A stretch of DNA of 39,810 nucleotides from Lentisphaeria bacterium (lineage in GTDB: Bacteria > Verrucomicrobiota > Lentisphaeria > Oligosphaerales > Oligosphaeraceae). Made by a program: the position numbers and the translations under genes. This document shows, one piece after another, positions 21,037-32,243 of this stretch. The stretch spans positions 1-39,810 of the forward strand of contig JAEEYQ010000036.1 in assembly GCA_016288215.1 (NCBI GenBank), in the 5' to 3' direction. The notes beneath the pieces were generated by a model. The model was not told where the DNA came from and did no database searches. It saw nothing but the letters and a program-made list of their open reading frames with translations. The stretch's first letter is position 1; every line of letters begins with the position of its first letter.

Positions 21037-22044
21037 ATGCCTATCATTGGAATGCTCAGTGTCGTGGCCTTCATCGCGATATTGGTGATGGCGTTCATCT
21101 TCTTCCACTATTTCGGCGTCTGGATTCAGGCCTGGGCCTCCGGCGCCCACATCGGCGTCTGGAAACTGGTGGGAATGTCCCTCCGCAAAGTCAACGCCTC
21201 CCAAATTGTCCGCGCCTACATCCAGTTGCGGCGGGCGGGGTTGGACATGATCAGCACCGACGAGCTGGAAGGCCATTTCATGGCCGGCGGCAACGTGCTC
21301 AACGTGGTCAACGCCCTTATCGCGGCGGACAAGGCCAACATCCCCCTGACCTTCAAGCGCGCCACCGCCATCGACTTGGCCGGCCGTGACGTCTTCGACG
21401 CCGTCCGCATGAGCGTCAACCCCCGCGTCATCGACTGCCCCAACCCCTCCAAAGGCCGCCTGACGGTGGACGCCGTCGCCAAAGACGGCATTCAAGTGAA
21501 GGCCAAGGCCCGCGTCACCGTCCGCGCCAACCTGGACAGCCTGGTCGGCGGCGCCACGGAGGAAACCATCATCGCCCGCGTTGGCGAGGGCATCGTCTCC
21601 ACCATCGGCTCCTCCGAATCCTACAAGGTAGTCCTTGAGAACCCGGACAACATCTCCCAGACCGTTCTCAAAAAGGGGCTGGACAGCGGAACCGCCTTCG
21701 AAATCCTCTCCATTGACATCGCCGACGTGGACGTTGGCGACAACATCGGCTCCCGCCTCCAGGCCGATCAGGCGGAGGCGGACACCCGCGTCGCGCAGGC
21801 GAACGCCGAAGTCCGCCGCGCCGCGGCCGTCGCCGAAGAGCAGGAGATGCGGGCCCGCGTTCAGGAGATGCAGGCCAAAGTCGTGGCCGCCCAGGCGGAA
21901 GTGCCGTTGGCCATGGCCGAAGCCCTCAAGAGCGGCAAACTCGGCGTCATGGACTACTATCGGCTGGAGAACCTGCAGGCGGACACGGAGATGCGCAACA
22001 GCATCACGGGTCCCGAAGCCTCCGAGTCCAAGAAGACGGAATAG
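21037..22044 (+). CDS. floA: Flotillin-like protein FloA (YqfA/UPF0365 family, SPFH superfamily)
   Basis: Near-colinear similarity to B. subtilis FloA: N-terminal TM segment, …[16 protein letters not shown]…[41 protein letters not shown]…, and a C-terminal EA-rich coiled coil ending [25 protein letters not shown]. Confidence 0.9.
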
Positions 22045-22920: not shown

Positions 22921-23058
22921 CCGCGCCCCGCTAGCCACATCCGCTGAAAAATCGTATCGTCAAATCAAAACGATGCAAAATGTGGCATGAAATTTGCTCT
23001 ATATACCATATACTATATGGTACGCAAAACACCGCCAACTGTCAATCCCGAAATCTTA

Positions 23059-24429
23059 ATGAGCTATTCCGTTGTCCTTGACATATGCCGCCGCATACAA
23101 GACGCCGGCGGCCGCGCCCTGCTAGTGGGCGGTTGCGTGCGGGATGCCCTTATGGGGTTGGACAGCAAGGACTTCGATATCGAGGTCCATGGCCTATCCC
23201 CCGAACAGCTGCGTCAATGCGTCGGCTCCCGCTATGATTTGGACTTGGTGGGAGCCAGTTTCGGCGTCTTCAAGGTGCATCATTACGACATCGACATCTC
23301 TTTGCCCCGCGTGGAGAACAAGACGGGAGCCGGTCATCGGGGCTTCATGGTGGAGGCCGTGGCGAATCTTCCCATCGAACAGGCGGCGGCGCGGCGGGAC
23401 TTCACCATCAACGCCATCATGAAGGATCCGCTGAGCGGCGAGATTCTCGATCCATGGAAGGGGCTGGAGGACTTGAAGGCCAAATGCCTTCGTCATGTGA
23501 GCGACCACTTTTCCGAAGACCCGCTGCGGGTGCTCCGCGGCATGCAGTTTGCCGCCCGCTTCGCCTTCCATGGGGCGCCGGAGACCCTTCGCCTCTGCGC
23601 CACCATGAGCCAAGACGAACTGCCGCGGGAGCGACTGGGCACGGAATGGGAGAAGCTGCTGCTGAAGGGGATACGCCCCTCGGCGGGGCTTGAGTTTCTC
23701 CGCGCCTGCGGCTGGCTTCGCCATTATCCGGAGCTGGCGGCCTTGGTGGGTTGCCAACAGGATCCCCGCTGGCATCCGGAGGGGGATGTGTGGCAGCATA
23801 CCCTGCGGGCCCTTGACGCCGCGGCGGGCCGTCGCACAGGAGAGCCGGCCGATGACCTTGCCGTGGGACTGGCGGTTCTTTGCCATGATTTCGGAAAGCC
23901 CGCCACCACCCGTGTCCGCAAAAGCGATGGCCGCATCATCAGCCATGGCCATGACACCATGGGCGAGGCGCCGACTCGCCATTTCGTGGAGCGGTTGTGG
24001 AATCAGCCTCGGCTGGAGGACCAAGTGGTTCGGCTGGTCCTCTGCCATATGCAGCCGGAGTGCCTGGTCCGCAACAACGCTTCCGACAAGGCGTTCCGCA
24101 AACTCGCCCTGCGCGTGAAACGGCCGGATCTCCTCGCCAACGTGGCCGCCTGCGACGCCTTGGCCGCCAATCCCGACGCGGACCTGTCCTCCATCGATCA
24201 GTTCATGGAAAAGATGCAAGCCCTTGCCGTGGAGAAGGCTCCGCCAAAACCCATCATCTTGGGCCGTCATCTTGTCCAGCGGGGCTTTGCCCCCGGCCCC
24301 AATTTCAAACCCATCTTGGACAAATGCTTCGAGGCCCAGCTGGATGGCAAATTCACCGACGAACCCGGCGGCCTCCGCTTCCTGGACCGCCTTCTTGCGT
24401 GGAAAACCCATAAACCGCAGACAATCTAA
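23059..24429 (+). CDS. cca: CCA-adding tRNA nucleotidyltransferase / poly(A) polymerase family with C-terminal HD domain
   Basis: Pol-beta NTase head motif LLVGGCVRDALMGLDSKDFDIEV…, RRDFTINA and an HD motif (CHDFGKP). I chose the ATG at 23059 (MSYSVVLDICRR…); the ORF-track start at 22987 adds a 24-aa extension spanning a palindrome. Confidence 0.85.
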   Translation: MSYSVVLDICRRIQDAGGRALLVGGCVRDALMGLDSKDFDIEVHGLSPEQLRQCVGSRYDLDLVGASFGVFKVHHYDIDISLPRVENKTGAGHRGFMVEAVANLPIEQAAARRDFTINAIMKDPLSGEILDPWKGLEDLKAKCLRHVSDHFSEDPLRVLRGMQFAARFAFHGAPETLRLCATMSQDELPRERLGTEWEKLLLKGIRPSAGLEFLRACGWLRHYPELAALVGCQQDPRWHPEGDVWQHTLRALDAAAGRRTGEPADDLAVGLAVLCHDFGKPATTRVRKSDGRIISHGHDTMGEAPTRHFVERLWNQPRLEDQVVRLVLCHMQPECLVRNNASDKAFRKLALRVKRPDLLANVAACDALAANPDADLSSIDQFMEKMQALAVEKAPPKPIILGRHLVQRGFAPGPNFKPILDKCFEAQLDGKFTDEPGGLRFLDRLLAWKTHKPQTI

Positions 24430-24629
24430 AACCGATTCAATAATCGTAAATTATTAATAATAAATAACTTATATTAATTCTAAAAACAGCATTTGGCTTT
24501 TTCTTCATGCAAATCATCATGCTGAATCGGTCTCTCCCCCAGACATCAAAATGTGCGGAAAAGGCTATAGAGGCAGAAGGCGAGGCATGCTGAAAAAGAA
24601 GAGCCGCTTTGGCGGCGGCAGGATATTAG

Positions 24630-24782
24630 CCGTGGGTAAGCGCAACGCCGTAGGCGTAAGCGTAACCCACGGTGCACGAGAAAAATAGAGTTTCAGAACC
24701 GCGAAGCGTTGACAGGAGCCTGACGTGGGCGAAGCAAAGCGAAACCCACGAACAGATTTCCTGCCACCATTAACGTGGTCCC
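24630..24782. repeat. Two tandem related hairpins, plus a third partial one, built on CGTGGG/CCCACG boxes and AAGCG repeats (REP-like or small structured RNA)
   Basis: Hairpin A: ccgtgggt-[aagcgcaacgccgtaggcgtaagcgta]-acccacgg at 24630-24672. Hairpin B is a shortened copy: cgtggg-[cgaagcaaagcgaaa]-cccacg at 24724-24750. A further cgtgg box lies at 24774. The segment is ~52% GC, wedged between the AT-rich flanks of the island edge. Confidence 0.4.
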
Positions 24783-24914
24783 AATTGTGTCTTTCAGGAA
24801 GAATAGTGTTTTATATAACTATTCAGAATCCTGATAATCCTGGAAAGCCGTTCCCATGGCTGAATTATGACCATGAACTTTGATTTTATGGATAGGTTCT
24901 GAATAGTAACAATC

Positions 24915-25583
24915 TCATGATTTATGGAAATTTGGAAACAGTAGGATTTCAAAAAATAGTTCTGGGTCGTTGCAACTGTCAACAGGTACCACTGGCTTAT
25001 CTCCCATTTTTGTGACTTTTAAGGTAATAGCTGGTTTTAATTCAGTAAAAATACAATATATGAATTCTGTGCAATATATCTTTTCAGATTCTGATAAATC
25101 CAATTTATAATCAAATGGCCTATTCATATATTTGTTGGTTATGTTCAATAATATAGAAGAATCTTCAATACTTTGATTCTTTTCTCGAAGACGATAGACA
25201 GCCGCTCCATCACCATTCAACAGAAAGTCAACAAGAGACACTTCTGTAACAGAACCAATACCTGTATAGTCATTTACATCAGCATGCAAGACGGTGACAT
25301 TTTTATCATTCTCATTGATTATGATTCCCACATGTGAAAACCGTTTATCATGTTGTGAAAAGTCACGGCACATATCTGACCAAAATCCATTTCCTTTTCG
25401 ACAAATAACATCTCCTGTTTTAAGTATTTTATTAATATTATTTTCAATAATATAATGATTTATTCTTTCTTTTGTTATGGATAGTTTTATTGCGGAATGA
25501 TATTTATAAACAATAATAAGAAAAATAGAAAGAAATAATAATGAATAAAATACCACAATTATTTTATTTCGATATTTTTTCAT
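24915..25583 (-). CDS. YiiX/YaeF-family permuted papain-like (NlpC/P60 superfamily) amidase with N-terminal membrane anchor
   Basis: Colinear with E. coli YiiX motifs: GDVICRK matches GDIIF, SHVGII matches SHTGM (catalytic His), FDYKLDLSESEKIYCTEFIY matches YDFSFSWSDDRQYCSEVVW (catalytic Cys). N-terminal TM helix IIVVFYSLLFLSIFLIIV. Confidence 0.8.
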   Translation of the reverse strand: MKKYRNKIIVVFYSLLFLSIFLIIVYKYHSAIKLSITKERINHYIIENNINKILKTGDVICRKGNGFWSDMCRDFSQHDKRFSHVGIIINENDKNVTVLHADVNDYTGIGSVTEVSLVDFLLNGDGAAVYRLREKNQSIEDSSILLNITNKYMNRPFDYKLDLSESEKIYCTEFIYCIFTELKPAITLKVTKMGDKPVVPVDSCNDPELFFEILLFPNFHKS

Positions 25584-25668
25584 ATATTTATGCTTTTAAT
25601 TAGTAAAATCTCCTCTAACTATTATTCAAAATTCATGTTAGAGGAGATTATCTTATCAATACTTATAC

Positions 25669-26124
25669 TTAATTGAAACTCTGCTTTGTAACACATACTT
25701 TCCAATTTCCATTCTCATCTTTTTCAGCAGGAATGGAATATTCTTTTGGTTCATCATCCAAGTATGATAAAATATTAGCGACACCTTTTTTTTCACTGAC
25801 CATTTTAACATCGACTACATCTAGTTTAGAAATTATGAGTGCCTCGTCTGCTTGTTCATTCATTCCCATAGTAGCTAACTTTACCATTGAACTTAATTGC
25901 TCAAATGTTTCATACCCTGTTTTATTGCAAATTTCTTTGGCCATATCTTTGTTACTTGTATAAAGTGCTAGCATAAACTTCTGTCCAAGTTCACCGATGA
26001 TTTCTTCATCACTCTTTCCATTTCCACAGCCGTTCATAGTAGCCATTAGTCCAATTACAAATATGATAGCAAGTCCTCTCTGGACAAGTGTTTTTTTAAT
26101 AACCTGACAAATTGTGTGTGTCAT
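25669..26124 (-). CDS. Small lipoprotein (hypothetical)
   Basis: AGGAG RBS 6 nt before the ATG at 26124. Signal peptide and lipobox …GLAIIFVIGLMATMNG-C. The ORF-track start at 26190 adds 22 aa lacking an RBS. Confidence 0.65.
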   Translation of the reverse strand: MTHTICQVIKKTLVQRGLAIIFVIGLMATMNGCGNGKSDEEIIGELGQKFMLALYTSNKDMAKEICNKTGYETFEQLSSMVKLATMGMNEQADEALIISKLDVVDVKMVSEKKGVANILSYLDDEPKEYSIPAEKDENGNWKVCVTKQSFN

Positions 26125-26153
26125 TTTTGACTCCTGTTCATTGATATTAACCT

Positions 26154-26206
26154 GAATCCGTGAAGTAAAAATCAGTTGGTTCCCCTTCACGGATTCTGTC
26201 GTTTTT
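26154..26206 (+). terminator. 12-bp perfect inverted repeat (gaatccgtgaag / cttcacggattc) with 19-nt loop, followed by TGTCGTTTTT
   Basis: Read directly from the sequence. Lies ~30 nt upstream of the lipoprotein SD on the minus strand. On the plus strand it looks like an intrinsic terminator, with no annotated plus-strand gene upstream. Confidence 0.4.
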
Positions 26207-26598
26207 CATAAAGGGAATCTTCCAACTTGCTTTTCAATGCTTCGCGGTGTGCTATTGCCGTTCCACATCTTCTCTGTTTTTGAACTCTATGTTTTCATAT
26301 TTGCTCCTTTTTGCTCATTGAATACAATCTCTTCCGTCTTTTCAGTACACGTCACGCTCTGCCTCTGCCTTAGAGACATCCAAAAGCATGCGTTGCAATT
26401 GGAACACTTTTCAGCAATTCTCAAAAAAAGCGAATCAACAAAATTACATCATGTTTGCCTCATTGATGGCGGTTGGAAAATGGAAAATATGTTCTAGAAT
26501 ATACTGTTAACCAATATGTTGTAGAATTATTTTTCTGCATTTTATTTGTTTCTTTGTAAGTTTAATTTACGGATTCTGGATTACATTATTGGGATATT

Positions 26599-27039
26599 TC
26601 AAGGAAAGTCAACTCCCATAAATGGCGAGCATCTATATAATCTGTGGACTATCATTGGCAATGCAATGAATAATCCATATTTCATTGTGGCTATTTTGGC
26701 ATAATTTGAACATGAAGGTCTCATACAGCATCTTAATCGTATATAAGAGGGAGCATAATGTTGATAAATAATGATGAAAAGAAGGAATATAAAATCACTA
26801 CAAACTAAAATATCAAAACACCAAAAAATAAGCTGTAACTTTGTAAACCACATTTTACTATAGCATATTGAATAACTACATAAAATATGTATAGAAAGTA
26901 TGTGAATTCCCTGAAGAATTAATAATAGAAAAAATAAACTTATAATATATGAAATTTTAACTTTTGGTCGATAAAGTCGTTTTATTGGAGCTGTTACCAC
27001 ATTATACTTTGGGGAATTGAAATAAGTTACAGTAATCAT
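26599..27039 (-). CDS. YidD-family (DUF37, membrane protein insertion efficiency factor-like) protein with a ~60-aa hydrophobic N-terminal extension
   Basis: C-terminal 80 aa …IIIYQHYAPSYIRLRCCMRPSCSNYAKIATMKYGLFIALPMIVHRLYRCSPFMGVDFP align with the YidD consensus YQR.ISP…CRF.PTCS.Y……RC.P…GG.DPVP. An alternative start at 26853 (MWFTKL…) would give a canonical 84-aa YidD. Confidence 0.7.
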   Translation of the reverse strand: MITVTYFNSPKYNVVTAPIKRLYRPKVKISYIISLFFLLLILQGIHILSIHILCSYSICYSKMWFTKLQLIFWCFDILVCSDFIFLLFIIIYQHYAPSYIRLRCCMRPSCSNYAKIATMKYGLFIALPMIVHRLYRCSPFMGVDFP

Positions 27040-27161
27040 TTAACATTAACAACCCTATTTATTTTAATCGTTTTTTGAAAAACATTAAGGAAATAATAAT
27101 TCTTGCACGAAATTATGTATTTCATGCAAGAATTATATACAGAAACCAATTTTCTAATACT

Positions 27162-27842
27162 TTAGTTACTCTTCTTGTCTCGTAACTGCTGTTTCATTGC
27201 CTGAACCATTCGTTCAATATCTTCAGATGAATCCATAGCTACTTTAAACTTATCTCCTGGAACAACAATTTGAAATTTCGTGGTATCTATCTGTCGAGAA
27301 GCAACTCCCTTTTTAGAGAATATGCAACCTCCTTTTTGTGCGAACCATTTTGGTGTGACTGATTCACTTGTTGTTGATATCGAAGTAACATCTTTGTAAA
27401 AATACTCTTCAGTATTTTCTTCCTTTGCATCTGCACACATGCAGAATGAATATTCATATACATATATCTGGGTTTTTGAGAAAAATAGCCAAGTTGACAT
27501 CCATGTCGAACTGACATATTTTCCACTTTCCGTCTCACGCACAAAATTATCATCAATCCAATAGCCTATAAAGTTTACAGGTGGTATTTCTGATATTTCT
27601 TCTTCATCAAGCCCAATTTTGTTAATTGCACGTTCTTTCAGGTTGAGCGATTCAATTTTAGACTGAACCAGTTTCTCATAATCTGCATCCTTAAGACCAA
27701 AATGTCGAAGGATACAGCAATCTTGCAAAAAATATGACAAAACTTTTCGCTGTTCTGCATTTTTTGTCAATTTCTTTGCATGTCTAAGAATCACTTCTCT
27801 TGATGCATTTTCAGGAACATTCAGCGGAACTTTTACTGACAT
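27162..27842 (-). CDS. Hypothetical cytosolic protein (226 aa), fourth gene of the island cassette
   Basis: AAGGAGA RBS 8 nt before the ATG. No TM segments and no recognisable domain. Its start lies 45 bp after the stop of the upstream ZnR/TPR gene. Confidence 0.7.
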   Translation of the reverse strand: MSVKVPLNVPENASREVILRHAKKLTKNAEQRKVLSYFLQDCCILRHFGLKDADYEKLVQSKIESLNLKERAINKIGLDEEEISEIPPVNFIGYWIDDNFVRETESGKYVSSTWMSTWLFFSKTQIYVYEYSFCMCADAKEENTEEYFYKDVTSISTTSESVTPKWFAQKGGCIFSKKGVASRQIDTTKFQIVVPGDKFKVAMDSSEDIERMVQAMKQQLRDKKSN

Positions 27843-27887
27843 TGTACCGTCTCCTTTTGTTGCGTTTTTCTATCACTAATGAGGATA

Positions 27888-28823
27888 TTATTCCTCAAAA
27901 TCATCCTTATTTATTTGCCATGTCTTGATGCCAGTAGCAATTATCGTAATGACTTGGATTATTGTCCAAATAATTATGGCAACACTCATTACCTCACTAC
28001 CTTCGTTTTCAGTATTTCCAACAATAATGAATAATATAATTGAAATTAAAAGCCAAATTACACCATATAGTATCTTTCCAACATATATCAAGCCTGCACC
28101 TGGGAAAATAAAAGCAAGAAGCAAAGCTTCAAACATACTCTTCTTTTTCTTAAATGCAGTAAAAGTTTGTTTTGGACCTTCATCTGCAATTGAGAGTCTT
28201 ATATTATCCTCTTGTGGTAGGGAAGAAATATCTAATCGAGAGAGTGGATTAACACCTAAAACAGAATAGAAATTTTTGATATCTGTCTCAGATACTCCAG
28301 CCTCTTTTGCCTTTGCCAATTCCTCATTCCATTTAGGTGAAATTTTCAAGAATTTTCTTTCAAAATAATCCAGTTTAACATAAGCCTTAGCAAAATAATA
28401 GATGCCACGTGGTTCAATCATAATTGCAGAGTCAAGATATTTCATTGTTTTATCAATGGTAGCTCGATCTAGTAAACTTGCCTTTTTTCCATTTAGCAAG
28501 CAAATAGCAGAATAGAAAAACAATTCTGAATTATCAAAGTTTGATTCAATTGCTTTTTCAAATGCCTCTAAGGCTTTTTCATGCAGTTTTAACTTCAAAT
28601 AGCACATTCCAATGGAAGCATTAATATCTGCATTTTCTGGGTTTTCAGCCAAAGCCTTCTTATAGGCATTAGCATATTTGTTCAATTCCGCCATTGGCAT
28701 ATCACTGACACTATTGAAGGTCGTAACAACAATAGGTCTTTGACAAAACTCACAAACCTTTTGTGATGTATCCGTAGGCGCACCACAACTAGGACACATT
28801 AAATTGACTACTTCTGTTGACAT
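27888..28823 (-). CDS. Zinc-ribbon + TPR-repeat + C-terminal TM2-like two-helix membrane domain protein
   Basis: AAGGAG RBS. N-terminal CPSCG…CEFCQ zinc ribbon. TPR-like helices (AYKKALAENPENADINASIGMCYLKLKLHEKALEAFEKAIE…). C-terminal FPGAGLIYVGKILYGVIWLLIS + IIWTIIQVITIIATGI, resembling TM2/DUF-type GxGxxYxG…GxIW helices. Confidence 0.8.
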   Translation of the reverse strand: MSTEVVNLMCPSCGAPTDTSQKVCEFCQRPIVVTTFNSVSDMPMAELNKYANAYKKALAENPENADINASIGMCYLKLKLHEKALEAFEKAIESNFDNSELFFYSAICLLNGKKASLLDRATIDKTMKYLDSAIMIEPRGIYYFAKAYVKLDYFERKFLKISPKWNEELAKAKEAGVSETDIKNFYSVLGVNPLSRLDISSLPQEDNIRLSIADEGPKQTFTAFKKKKSMFEALLLAFIFPGAGLIYVGKILYGVIWLLISIILFIIVGNTENEGSEVMSVAIIIWTIIQVITIIATGIKTWQINKDDFEE

Positions 28824-28841
28824 TTTTTCTCCTTCTTGTTG

Positions 28842-29600
28842 TTATTTCTTGCACTCTGCAATAACTTCTTGGAGTCTTCCATCAATCATGGATAGTTCTT
28901 CAAGCAAATTGTCCCTATTTCCACTCATCATCTTGTCATAAAAGTCTTGCACTTTTTGAGAAACTACCCGATATTTCTCAGATTGTGAAATATTCCCTAC
29001 TCTTGGAAGAGAATACTTAATCTTTTCTTTACAGGCCTTGATTCTTTTAACAATATCCTTATTCAATGATGGCTGCTTCTCACATATTTCTAAAAATACA
29101 TAAAGATCATCAGGTGTTCTAACATTTTGAGGCAACAATTCCATTCCATCATTTTGAAGTTTTTGTGCAGTCAATAGAAGAAAAATCTTTATAAGACACA
29201 CCACAACTACTACAATCTGACAACTAATCTCTAGAGAAAAATAGAAGCGTTCTGTTGGAAGCCATAAACTAATTAACCACAAGCAAAAAGATAGAATAGT
29301 TGCTTGACTAATTGCTCCAGCTATTCCAATATATCCTGCTCCTGTTTGTTGGCGTTTCTTCAAAAGTTGCGGAAGTACCCCATTAATAATTCCATAGAAT
29401 GCAAATATAACAATTAATTCTATCCAAATGAGTCTATACCAGAAATATTGACTTCTATGCCAGAACGATGATGCGTCTGCATCAATTCTAAACATTATCA
29501 TCCCTATTATGACAATTGCAATTGCTACAATTGGACATAGGATAATGCCAATTATCTTGTGTGCTCCTAAATTTTCTGCTCTACTATCTTGATTTAACAT
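28842..29600 (-). CDS. Polytopic membrane protein (about 4 TM helices) with ~100-aa C-terminal cytoplasmic helical domain
   Basis: AGGAG RBS. Four hydrophobic helices (IIGIILCPIVAIAIVIIGMIMF, LIWIELIVIFAFYGIINGVL, IGIAGAISQATILSFCLWLISLWL, ISCQIVVVVVCLIKIFLLLTA). Its start lies 11 bp after the SPFH gene stop. Confidence 0.75.
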   Translation of the reverse strand: MLNQDSRAENLGAHKIIGIILCPIVAIAIVIIGMIMFRIDADASSFWHRSQYFWYRLIWIELIVIFAFYGIINGVLPQLLKKRQQTGAGYIGIAGAISQATILSFCLWLISLWLPTERFYFSLEISCQIVVVVVCLIKIFLLLTAQKLQNDGMELLPQNVRTPDDLYVFLEICEKQPSLNKDIVKRIKACKEKIKYSLPRVGNISQSEKYRVVSQKVQDFYDKMMSGNRDNLLEELSMIDGRLQEVIAECKK

Positions 29601-29611
29601 GTATGTTTCTC

Positions 29612-30628
29612 CTACATCTGGTCAATAATAGCAGCCTTTTTAACCTTATATTCCTCCTCTGTCAAAATTCCCTCTTCAAAAAGCATTTTCAGTTTTTTTA
29701 GTTTAGCCAGTACATCCTGTTCTCCCATTTGTCCATTGTTCTGGGAAACAGATTGTGCCGTTTGAGAAGCTAAAGGGATACCAGCATTAACTGCTAAACC
29801 CAGACCTGCTCCTAGCCCCATCATATTACCAACTGCTCCATTGTTATTTGCTGCATCTTTCATGACTTCAAATCCTTTGGCGGCCATATATCCTTGACCA
29901 ACTTGCACAGAACTCAATTGTTGCATTTCCATCTTCTTTGCCATCACATCCTGAATCTTCTTCATTTCCTCAGGTGAGATGCTAATGCTGCTACAAGAAA
30001 AGTTTACCAACTCAATCCCAAATCGATTAAATTCATCTACAACATTATCTCTAACAGTTTGAGAAATATCAGCTAGTTTTGAGCTCAATTGAAAAACAGA
30101 CAATCCATTGCTAATCATATTACTGACAGTTTGATTAAATTTTTCAATAATCTCACCGATAAAATACTCGTATATTTTTTTACTATCTGCTCCTAGTTGT
30201 GCCCCCACAACCTGCGTAACAAAACTTCTTGAATCATCAATTCTAAATCCCCACTGACCAAATGCTCCTACATTAATCGGAAAACCTAATGCAGGATCAA
30301 AAAGAGGAATACGCTGTGGTGTCCCCCATTTCATATTTCTTTTGACTGTTTTATTGACATACCAAACCTCAGCAGTAAATGGGGTTTTCCCACCAAAAAA
30401 TGAGTTTACCAATTTCCCAAGTAAAGGAAGATTTCCAGTTACTAGCGTATGCGTACCTGCTGTAAATGTGTCTAATGCAACCCCACCCTTAACGAATATT
30501 GCTTCTTGCCCTTCATTTACAACAAGTTGACTACCTAAGCGAAGTTCATATTGATTTTCTGACATAAACTTATGTACAATAAAATCATCTGAAGGAACAT
30601 CCCATTTTACCAAATCTAATACCGCCAT
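29612..30628 (-). CDS. SPFH/Band-7 protein of the Band_7_1 (COG4260, YdjI-like 'virion core protein') family with C-terminal SHOCT domain
   Basis: AAGGAGAAAAACC RBS. N-terminal region is colinear with B. subtilis YdjI (MAVLDLVKWDVPSDDFIVHKF…GSQLVVNEGQEAIFVKGG…). Gly-rich linker. C-terminal DVLAKLKKLKMLFEEGILTEEEYKVKKAAIIDQM is a textbook SHOCT. Confidence 0.85.
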   Translation of the reverse strand: MAVLDLVKWDVPSDDFIVHKFMSENQYELRLGSQLVVNEGQEAIFVKGGVALDTFTAGTHTLVTGNLPLLGKLVNSFFGGKTPFTAEVWYVNKTVKRNMKWGTPQRIPLFDPALGFPINVGAFGQWGFRIDDSRSFVTQVVGAQLGADSKKIYEYFIGEIIEKFNQTVSNMISNGLSVFQLSSKLADISQTVRDNVVDEFNRFGIELVNFSCSSISISPEEMKKIQDVMAKKMEMQQLSSVQVGQGYMAAKGFEVMKDAANNNGAVGNMMGLGAGLGLAVNAGIPLASQTAQSVSQNNGQMGEQDVLAKLKKLKMLFEEGILTEEEYKVKKAAIIDQM

Positions 30629-30687
30629 GGTTTTTCTCCTTGTTTTGAAGGCCTGTGTTTTTCACACAAAAAAGAGCGCCTCTCTTC

Positions 30688-30805
30688 GTGATTTCCTGAG
30701 GTTTAGGACGACCTACGTAATAGCACGAAAAGAGACGCTCAACGCGGAGTGCTCCAGCGTGTGCTATTACGTGAAATTCTAAAGGTCCTAATTTCAGGAA
30801 ATCAC
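30688..30805. repeat. 118-nt three-segment nested inverted repeat (12 + 7 + 11 bp helices), a long imperfect hairpin at the island border
   Basis: gtgatttcctga (30688-30699) pairs with tcaggaaatcac (30794-30805). ttaggac (30703-30709) pairs with gtcctaa (30785-30791). cgtaatagcac (30716-30726) pairs with gtgctattacg (30761-30771). The central loop is 34 nt. Confidence 0.6.
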
Positions 30806-31016
30806 AAAGCACTACTCCAGCGATAAGTACCGCTGGCTATGTCAAAAGAGAGATAACGCTTTTTCTATGTTTTGAAGACTCCTTGATTAAATGACATCCT
30901 GTAGCCGAATGCTACAAAAACAATTATAATTTATCGCTCTAACCTTGATTTACAAGTTTGTTCAAAAAAATATCTTCACATGCTACTCAAAAAGGTTGAC
31001 AATGGCCACTGCCAAA

Positions 31017-32243
31017 TCAGATGTCGGCGGCCGGAATGCAGACAACATTTTTGTTCGGTAGCGGGACAGGGGTATCGCAGGCGCACAGGACCGCTCCCTT
31101 CAGGACCGGCTTGCCGAGTTTCCCAAGGACCTTGAAATGGCTTGCGTCATCAGACTTTGGCGTGGCCGTTTTCTTGCATTCAACGGGGTGGAAGCCCTCC
31201 GCCGTGTCGATGACAAGGCCAATCTCCCGCTGGTCGCGATCCCTGTAGTAGAACAGGTTATCGATTTTCATACCCGCATTCCAATATGTCTTGATGATTT
31301 CGGAGATGCACCATGTCTCGAAAATGGCCCCTGCCATCGCGCCCGCCTCCAGTGTCTCTGGCGTTGGCCAATGCGTGAGGTAGGAGCAGAGCCCCGTGTC
31401 CAAAAAATACAGTTTCGGCGTCTTGACCAGTCGGGCAGTCAGACTGCTGGCGTAGGGGGGCAGAAGATGGATGAGATGCGACTCCTTGAGAATGGCAAGC
31501 CAGTTTTGGACCGTCGTCACATCAACACTCGCGTCGCGCGACAGTTCGCTGGCGTTGACCATCTGTCCCGTTCTCGCCGCACAGGAGCAAATGAACTTGT
31601 AGAAGCGGTCAAGGTCATGCACGTTCTTGAGATTCCGTATATCGCGCTCCAAATAGGTGCTTACATAGCTGGAATAGAACAAGTTACGCTCCTCGGGCGT
31701 GGCGTTCAGGACCTCTGGATATGTCCCCTGCCATATGCTGCGGAACAGCTCCATGACGCCTGGCCTTTTTCCTTCGGCGAGAGGGACTTCCGGCGTGAAT
31801 GGAAGGTTGCCGCGCCCCGCGAGCTCGGCCTGCGAGATGCCCCCCATGTCGAAAATGCCAATACGGCCCGCAAGAGAGTCGGACACGCCTTTCATCAGCT
31901 CAAACTGCTGCGAACCGGTCAGCCAAAACATCCCCTTGGCATTGTCTGGATCGCTAAAGCGCCGCTCGTCAATGACCATCTTGATGTAGCTCAGAAGGCT
32001 CGGAACATATTGGACTTCATCAAGCAGGACCGGAGGGCTGAAGCGGTCCAGAAAGCCCTTGGGGTCCTCCTTGGCCAGCAGCCGCAGATCCACATCATCG
32101 AACGTGACGTATTTTCTGTCCGTTCCCGCAAGTTTCCGCAGCAAAGTCGTTTTCCCCACCTGACGCGCTCCTGTCAGCAACAAGGCAGGGAAGAAGCGGT
32201 TAGCCGCCTCGACGGCCTTTTGGATCTGCCTTTCAATGAACAT
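31017..32243 (-). CDS. AAA+ superfamily ATPase with C-terminal DUF4143 (COG1373-type)
   Basis: Walker A LLLTGARQVGKTTLL, Walker B-like VLLDEVQ, and a DUF4143-like C-terminal half. The antisense 429-aa ORF (31137-32426, plus strand) is rejected as a shadow. Confidence 0.85.
   Translation of the reverse strand: MFIERQIQKAVEAANRFFPALLLTGARQVGKTTLLRKLAGTDRKYVTFDDVDLRLLAKEDPKGFLDRFSPPVLLDEVQYVPSLLSYIKMVIDERRFSDPDNAKGMFWLTGSQQFELMKGVSDSLAGRIGIFDMGGISQAELAGRGNLPFTPEVPLAEGKRPGVMELFRSIWQGTYPEVLNATPEERNLFYSSYVSTYLERDIRNLKNVHDLDRFYKFICSCAARTGQMVNASELSRDASVDVTTVQNWLAILKESHLIHLLPPYASSLTARLVKTPKLYFLDTGLCSYLTHWPTPETLEAGAMAGAIFETWCISEIIKTYWNAGMKIDNLFYYRDRDQREIGLVIDTAEGFHPVECKKTATPKSDDASHFKVLGKLGKPVLKGAVLCACDTPVPLPNKNVVCIPAADI

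Follow-up and report, generated by a model that had tools for sequence, protein, structure and literature searches.

What kind of system is encoded by a tightly packed set of membrane-protein genes lying in a low-GC island of a GC-rich genome, and do its genes belong together at all? This question is raised by a contig of a Lentisphaeria bacterium (JAEEYQ010000036.1, assembly GCA_016288215.1, positions 1 to 39,810; the whole 39,810-nucleotide stretch is referred to below as the window). Four minus-strand open reading frames (ORFs) of this contig (29612-30628, 28842-29600, 27888-28823 and 27162-27842) are separated by gaps of 11, 18 and 45 bp, and the sequence AGGAG is present 6-11 nt before each start codon. 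A preliminary description, made from the sequence alone, had pointed out a cassette of four packed minus-strand genes with strong ribosome-binding sites, and our ORF listing returned the same ORFs, gaps and AGGAG motifs. The unit nevertheless comprises five genes, since an ORF located 122 bp downstream of the fourth gene (26599-27039), which had been missed, is a conserved member in 84 of 88 related loci. The cassette is the S-P-T-A part of a co-oriented, tightly spaced and widely transferred five-gene module, recently acquired by this genome. The five genes are as follows.

29612..30628, minus strand: S (G1), SPFH protein, 338 amino acids (aa) (Pfam, hydropathy)
28842..29600, minus strand: P (G2), membrane partner with four transmembrane (TM) helices, 252 aa (hydropathy, AlphaFold2 model)
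27888..28823, minus strand: T (G3), zinc ribbon and TPR adaptor, 311 aa (Pfam, conserved motif)
27162..27842, minus strand: A (G4), helical bundle and PH-like domain, 226 aa (structure model)
26599..27039, minus strand: Y (G5), two TM helices and YidD domain, 146 aa (PF01809, TIGR00278)

Relatives of A, the signature gene of the module, were sought in one genome per species (185,579 species) and were found in 232 of these genomes. Eighty loci were fetched from these genomes and, together with eight fetched earlier, constituted a set of 88 loci containing A; ORFs were called in all of them (by a crude procedure), followed by jackhmmer searches starting from the window proteins. The 80 loci originate from Bacillota, Bacteroidota, Lentisphaerota, Spirochaetota, Elusimicrobiota, Synergistota and one alphaproteobacterial metagenome-assembled genome, and nearly all of the carriers are anaerobes from gut, rumen or termite-gut samples. 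Within the 88 loci, A is accompanied by T in 83, by Y (nearly always directly after A) in 84, and by S in 72. The most common gene order is AYSPT (24 loci, mostly Bacteroidota), followed by TAYSP (7) and SPTAY (4), in addition to TAYH..SP; three further loci, SuTAY, represent SPTAY with a divergent partner, and the S-P-T-A-Y order of the window belongs to this group. Each of these arrangements can be obtained by rotating one cyclic order, T-A-Y-S-P. Where at least 3 kb of sequence was available on both sides (35 loci), all five genes were present in 20, and several of the apparent gaps among the 35 are gene-calling artefacts. The gene neighbourhood thus recurs in at least seven phyla, and this recurrent adjacency supports the view, already expressed in the preliminary description, that the neighbouring products probably act as a unit; a lack of co-occurrence in other genomes, named there as grounds for rejecting this view, is not what was observed. 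Exact-sequence look-ups with S and A identified short metagenome contigs only, adding no gene context.

In the window the module resides in a region of deviating composition.

24430..31016, no strand assigned: low-GC island with the module and two unrelated cargo genes (composition)

The GC content of the island is 0.29-0.37 over approximately 6.6 kb (about 24.4-31.0 kb), compared with 0.52-0.64 elsewhere in the contig (approximately 59% around the island), while the GC content at third codon positions is 0.21-0.29 in island genes and 0.71-0.83 in flanking genes. On both measures the island is foreign to this genome and accessory, as had been proposed. It showed no tRNA or integrase gene, and a repeat search found no terminal/flanking direct repeats (att-like) at its borders. 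Foreign origin is thus established, with no marker pointing to a mechanism of mobility or insertion.

In most of the other loci, too, the GC content of the module lies below that of its flanks (mean difference 5.3 points, maximum 19.5; approximately 25 points in the window), which points to repeated transfer. Among 150 immediate neighbours the most frequent Pfam matches are XRE-type helix-turn-helix proteins (7) and integrases (5); relaxases and resolvases are represented by two each. A phage origin was considered and rejected: no relative of A was present in 2.9 million viral contigs, and PHROGs yielded nothing meaningful for the core genes. A plasmid location was rejected as well. The search of PLSDB gave a single match (L089), "plasmid 5" of Bacteroides finegoldii (NZ_OY725907.1), a record in which rny, dinB, obgE, adk and hpt are found and which resembles part of a chromosome more than a plasmid. 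The module of this strain is annotated by NCBI as helix-turn-helix protein, hypothetical protein, yidD, SPFH protein, hypothetical protein and zinc ribbon protein.

What do the individual products look like? S was correctly recognised in the preliminary description as an SPFH protein of the Band_7_1 family (PF13421; 147.3 bits versus a cut-off of 24, with profile positions 6-204 of 211 aligned), and it also matches Pfam Band_7 (39.1 bits). A Gly/Ala-rich linker is followed by a C-terminal SHOCT domain (PF09851, residues 309-334), whose earlier assignment holds narrowly (28.7 bits versus a cut-off of 27); this segment recovers 40 SPFH tails of the module in a jackhmmer search. The tail is variable across the module loci, with SHOCT in 35, GYF_2 in 26 and neither domain in 7. 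The presence of GYF_2 on some A-family proteins elsewhere creates a domain link between S and A. Pfam revealed no zinc ribbon in S, unlike YdjI of Bacillus subtilis with its C-terminal zinc finger. Hydropathy analysis identified no TM helix, i.e. no hydrophobic 19-mer over the threshold, and S is predicted to be cytosolic, without a membrane anchor of its own. No match was obtained with S in a sequence search of the PDB. A flotillin-like gene, floA (21037-22044, plus strand; Pfam FloA, 514 bits), of host-like GC content lies approximately 3 kb to the left of the island, so this host possesses its own canonical SPFH protein besides S.

P contains four hydrophobic helices and was modelled by AlphaFold2 as a 4-TM bundle with a cytoplasmic C-terminal helical domain of roughly 90 aa, in agreement with its original description as a 4-TM protein. 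A P-type gene, encoding TM helices and a helical tail and belonging to one family, follows S in 56 loci. A direct homologue search with the P protein of the window returned only 4 proteins; its relationship to the P family emerged from profile-profile comparison (probability 90%, E 1.4e-6), and a search with the family profile mostly retrieved a short form of 189 aa. The family has no Pfam model, no TPM_phosphatase match was found in the window's P with Pfam, and the only structural matches to its model were generic helical bundles, which carry no functional information. Given the lack of a TM helix in S and the membrane protein that follows it in 56 loci, S appears to be held at the membrane by a partner, and P is probably its anchor.

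In T, the TPR repeats pass the threshold (TPR_1, 33.3 bits versus 27.8), while Zn_ribbon_3 (16.6 versus 27) does not; the zinc ribbon is nevertheless credible because the CPxCG...CxxC motif shows at least 70-90% conservation among 75 family members, in which the TPR core is also kept. The original reading of this protein as a zinc ribbon-TPR-TM2 fusion is therefore retained for its first two parts only: TM2 (PF05154) stays under threshold (16.2 versus 27.9), and hydropathy shows three TM helices instead of two. Relatives of T are typically 197 aa long and have no TM tail. The C-terminal 3-TM segment is thus peculiar to the lineage of the window, where it fits an action of T at the membrane.

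A, previously considered to have no recognisable domain, is modelled in two parts, a helical bundle and a PH-like domain (a seven-strand beta-sandwich capped by a C-terminal helix). The protein has a conserved basic C-terminal helix. A role of its conserved EIPPV motif in GYF_2 binding was considered and dropped, since this motif forms the first beta-strand of the modelled PH-like domain and not a free peptide. A word-indexed protein search revealed 79 homologues, and a profile search (E<=1e-3) against 1.84 billion representative proteins yielded 1299 clusters at 50% identity; the A family has no Pfam model.

Y passes PF01809 (46.7 bits versus a cut-off of 27), its C-terminal 60 residues pass TIGR00278 (52.2 versus 40), and the motif YQ..YA..R..C..P.CSeY..KYG..R..C..DyP is conserved in 80 relatives; a PDB sequence search with Y gave no match. 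Canonical YidD is a small single-domain protein encoded in the rnpA-yidD-yidC context. Y shares with it the three cysteines and the YQ, PxCS and KYG motifs, but is twice as long, carries two N-terminal TM helices and belongs to an accessory operon instead of the rnpA/yidC neighbourhood. According to hydropathy and the positive-inside rule, the soluble domains of all five products are predicted to be cytoplasmic.

About a fifth of the loci are extended. In 20 of them (including L005, L015, L018, L031, L032, L042, L059, L061 and L062) a HerA/FtsK-like ATPase of approximately 890 aa is encoded between Y and S. Pfam DUF87 (the HerA central domain) and the HerA/mad8 models of PADLOC match this protein, whereas its score against the CedD-like NCBIfam model (94.6 bits) is far under the 600-bit cut-off, and HerA-like NCBIfam models also remain below theirs. 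The ATPase gene is followed by one for a protein in which Asp/Glu make up 40-50% of the first 200-400 residues; the middle regions of these proteins are shared, and the C-terminus varies between loci. One of 11 such acidic proteins (L059, Faecalibacterium prausnitzii) ends in a WHH/colicin-DNase domain, and another (L018) has a C-terminus that, to our eye, looks like a Cys-His peptidase, with no Pfam match. Several acidic protein genes are followed, at a distance of -1 to +6 bp, by an ORF of 156-169 aa; no immunity family was recognised among these ORFs. One may speculate that the acidic N-terminus serves as a nucleic-acid mimic for the ATPase. Approximately 77% of the loci, the window included, contain neither the ATPase nor the acidic cargo.

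How might these proteins work together? All five products would come together at the cytoplasmic side of the membrane, where S, lacking TM helices, would oligomerise to form a scaffold. The adjacent P would hold this scaffold at the membrane, in the manner in which YdjH anchors YdjI in B. subtilis. In that species, membrane recruitment of YdjI, a soluble SPFH protein, is brought about by YdjG and YdjH, YdjI organises PspA, and YdjGHI have recently been renamed SamGHI (PMC8581546; bioRxiv 10.64898/2026.02.06.704340). The second sub-block, comprising T, A and the membrane-anchored YidD-like Y, might dock onto the S scaffold or be organised by it. In the HflK/C-FtsH, QmcA-YbbJ and FloT/FloA-NfeD systems, too, the gene of an SPFH scaffold lies directly beside that of a dedicated membrane protein; the module differs from them in that S has no TM anchor, P is not an NfeD protein (it is 4-TM and helical, with no OB-fold) and no protease is present.

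The most likely of the roles considered, which we put forward tentatively, is membrane surveillance in a conflict setting of the defence or abortive-infection type. Y and/or P would then be built-in membrane effectors and, in about a fifth of the loci, the HerA-like ATPase and the hyper-acidic nuclease/toxin-like protein would form an extra effector arm. Several features argue for such a role: patchy transfer across phyla, a module GC content below that of the flanks, modular rearrangement, swapping of tail domains, the HerA and nuclease-type inserts, duplication of A paralogues in some loci, and occasional neighbours of the mobile-element and Abi/PDC kind (Abi_2 adjoins the module in L008, and PDC-S01 in the window). 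Zorya and Kiwa are membrane-anchored anti-phage systems; they resemble the module in combining a multi-TM complex and soluble cytoplasmic parts with optional nuclease or ATPase arms, and in their patchy distribution and horizontal transfer. They are, however, unrelated to it in sequence, and the association of the module with defence islands appears weak.

Several observations weigh against a conflict role. Most of the 150 immediate neighbours are housekeeping genes, and no PADLOC family is matched by more than three of them (top families, 2-3 each); the defence context suggested earlier for such an island appears weak, with isolated cases among the neighbours. In Bacteroides (B. finegoldii) the module occupies a stable housekeeping context, adjoining pgeF-obgE-adk-hpt. 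S, P, T, A and Y match no model of PADLOC-DB 2.0.0, either in the window (where T gives a weak PDC-M14A match, E 0.019, and the other four none) or among 146 diverse module proteins, whose matches are confined to the HerA-like ATPases. No recognised enzymatic effector is present in the five-gene core. A few loci carry T-A-Y with no S-P nearby, and the two blocks may not always form one complex. The physical interactions among the five proteins are proposed from synteny only, and the role itself is a computational proposal.

Ranked below membrane surveillance in a conflict setting, and somewhat unlikely in our opinion, is a function in envelope stress or membrane-protein quality control. S and P would, under this proposal, form a scaffold organising a patch of membrane, with Y perhaps serving as a YidD-like insertion factor. 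T, as a chaperone-like adaptor, and A, as a membrane-binding PH-like protein, could conceivably help Y to insert or repair membrane proteins, and the trigger might be membrane stress of the gut type (bile salts, antimicrobial peptides, organic acids). To our knowledge, the only role of YidD is aiding YidC-dependent insertion, and the only characterised Band_7_1 protein is YdjI/SamI, whose action in membrane stress involves two partners in the membrane. Contacts of HflK/C-FtsH with YidC have been reported, and SPFH proteins have been linked biochemically to YidC-pathway factors, although an operon joining them is not known. The precedent of YdjI/SamI in membrane stress (PMC8581546; bioRxiv 10.64898/2026.02.06.704340) favours this function, as do the passing of the YidD equivalog cut-off by Y, the predicted cytoplasmic and membrane-proximal position of all soluble domains, the almost exclusive occurrence in gut, rumen and termite-gut anaerobes, the housekeeping context in Bacteroides and the apparently scant enrichment of defence genes in the flanks. 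However, no partner of the PspA/ESCRT-III, TPM, NfeD or FtsH type was seen in the island; a distribution limited to 232 of 185,579 species, with strong signs of transfer, would be unusual for a housekeeping stress system; and the HerA and acidic nuclease/toxin inserts are hard to reconcile with repair.

The extended loci also permit a broader formulation, which we regard as doubtful: T-A-Y-S-P might be the membrane core of a kind of conflict machinery that has so far gone unrecognised, built around an SPFH cage and existing in an anti-phage or an export version. In the anti-phage version the core would sense the membrane, with Y and the 4-TM protein as effectors, and some loci would add an acidic nuclease arm driven by HerA; in the export version a HerA/FtsK-type motor would translocate hyper-acidic, DNA-mimicking polymorphic toxins.

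Taken as a sole explanation, export appears quite unlikely. T-A-Y-S-P would in this case be the envelope-associated core of an unrecognised protein-export or toxin-delivery route, in which, in the extended loci, the ATPase pumps the hyper-acidic proteins, whose C-termini vary, and immunity is conferred by the small ORF downstream; loci reduced to the core, the window among them, would rely on cargo genes located elsewhere or be remnants. The presence of the ATPase inside the operon in 20 loci, the acidic proteins with divergent C-termini that follow it, the single WHH/colicin-DNase C-terminus and the coupled 156-169-aa ORFs are all in line with this proposal. An analogy exists with type VII secretion, which pairs an FtsK/HerA ATPase with a protein of PH-like fold (PMC3482391), and the extended variants share with type VIIb and polymorphic toxin loci an ATPase of this kind, a PH-like protein, a protein of variable C-terminus (a WHH toxin domain in one case) and a small downstream ORF. 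The ATPase of the module, however, is a single-domain HerA-like protein and not EssC; no WXG100/LXG, EssA/B or EsaA components and no signal-peptide features were seen, and most loci, with the window among them, have neither ATPase nor toxin. Moreover, only one of the 11 acidic proteins carries a toxin domain, immunity is a putative function of the downstream ORF, and the hosts are both monoderm and diderm, with no outer-membrane component in the module.

It had been proposed in the preliminary description that the cassette is a PspA-less version of the B. subtilis YdjGHI (SamGHI) system with domains shuffled among its proteins. We consider this very improbable, and at the level of homology the comparisons made here already contradict it. 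There are genuine similarities. YdjI is presumably a member of Band_7_1 as well. It resembles S in the absence of a TM helix and in the low-complexity linker, and has been described as soluble (PMC8581546). In both systems the SPFH gene lies beside genes for membrane proteins that probably recruit its product, and the operon includes a gene for a zinc-ribbon protein. YdjG, however, combines two zinc ribbons with an NTF2-like domain and one TM helix, and YdjH is a membrane protein of the TPM-domain type (PMC11237479), whereas T is a zinc ribbon-TPR protein lacking the second ribbon and the NTF2-like domain, and P, helical and with four TM segments, has no TPM domain; the SPFH gene alone is shared. 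The zinc ribbon, whose supposed migration between neighbouring proteins had been taken as a sign that they form one complex, did not move out of the SPFH protein: it is an invariant part of a separate zinc ribbon-TPR gene in 83 loci. Furthermore, A and Y have no ydj counterparts, the SPFH tail is SHOCT or GYF_2 in the module and a zinc ribbon in YdjI, and the module is horizontally mobile and extends beyond Bacillota. No PspA_IM30 match was found in any ORF of the island, and this family is also outside the top 25 Pfam families of 150 genes flanking the related loci. Finally, the idea that unrelated genes came to lie together by chance in an AT-rich island has nothing in its favour beyond missing annotation and is excluded, as a practically negligible option, because the same five families lie side by side and in one orientation in dozens of loci, spread over at least seven phyla. 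The earlier remark that no system of this architecture has been described still holds: no description of the T-A-Y-S-P combination was found in the literature accessible for searching (SPFH, YidD, TPR, defence and polymorphic-toxin combinations) or in PADLOC.

The module is accompanied in the window by the following additional features.

27096..27136, minus strand: hairpin with an 18-bp stem, within the 122-bp A-Y spacer (inverted repeat)
30629..31016, minus strand: upstream non-coding region, presumed promoter and leader (position)
30684-30809, minus strand: long hairpin of approximately 125 nt in the leader of S (inverted repeat)
25669-26190, minus strand: cargo gene, lipoprotein-like, with lipobox MNGC (sequence)
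24915-25583, minus strand: cargo gene, TM helix and Peptidase_C92/YiiX permuted papain-like amidase (domain match)
31017-32243, minus strand: AAA_14/DUF4143 ATPase gene directly adjoining the island, PADLOC PDC-S01 346 bits, host-like GC content of 56% (Pfam, PADLOC, GC)

The A-Y hairpin may be an intra-operon attenuator or a processing site. In the closest relative (78% identical; L003 10534-10567, L004 960-993) a perfect 15-bp hairpin of unrelated sequence occupies the same position in the spacer, which suggests that the role of this element is structural and conserved. The region of the leader hairpin (30629-30860) folds as RNA with -86.2 kcal/mol (z = -5.7); the hairpin is identical in L001, is not alignable in L003, a 78-87% relative, and, like the rest of the island, gave no credible match in Rfam. 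Upstream of the cassette of the closest relative (L003 3634-6321) lies a gene for an 895-aa Ser/Thr protein kinase that matches the mad6, PD-T4-6 and MkoA kinase models of PADLOC. For the two cargo genes, no relatives were found beside the module in the other loci examined. The AAA_14/DUF4143 ATPase falls into a 90%-identity cluster whose named members are Victivallales, so that the host is probably a gut bacterium of the Lentisphaerota. At the left border of the island, two GC-rich palindromes (CGTGGG...CCCACG; approximately 24630-24672 and 24724-24750) are located in a spacer of 51-55% GC between a PolyA_pol-domain gene (22987-24429) and the AT-rich island; these may be terminators or repetitive extragenic palindromic (REP)-like elements.

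SPFH proteins are universal membrane scaffolds whose bacterial clients are mostly unknown. The module described here, which stands outside the YdjGHI system, combines the theme of an SPFH protein and its membrane partner with three further conserved components, and, being genetically compact and present in many phyla, it allows the likely clients to be read from conserved synteny: a YidD-like factor, a PH-like protein, a TPR adaptor and a dedicated 4-TM anchor. Two sizeable protein families with no Pfam model (A and P) are thereby defined, and the poorly understood YidD domain is found in a further genomic setting. Those variants that carry a HerA-like ATPase and hyper-acidic nuclease-type proteins might represent a new mechanism of defence or toxin delivery in gut commensals, including Bacteroides, Faecalibacterium and Ruminococcus.

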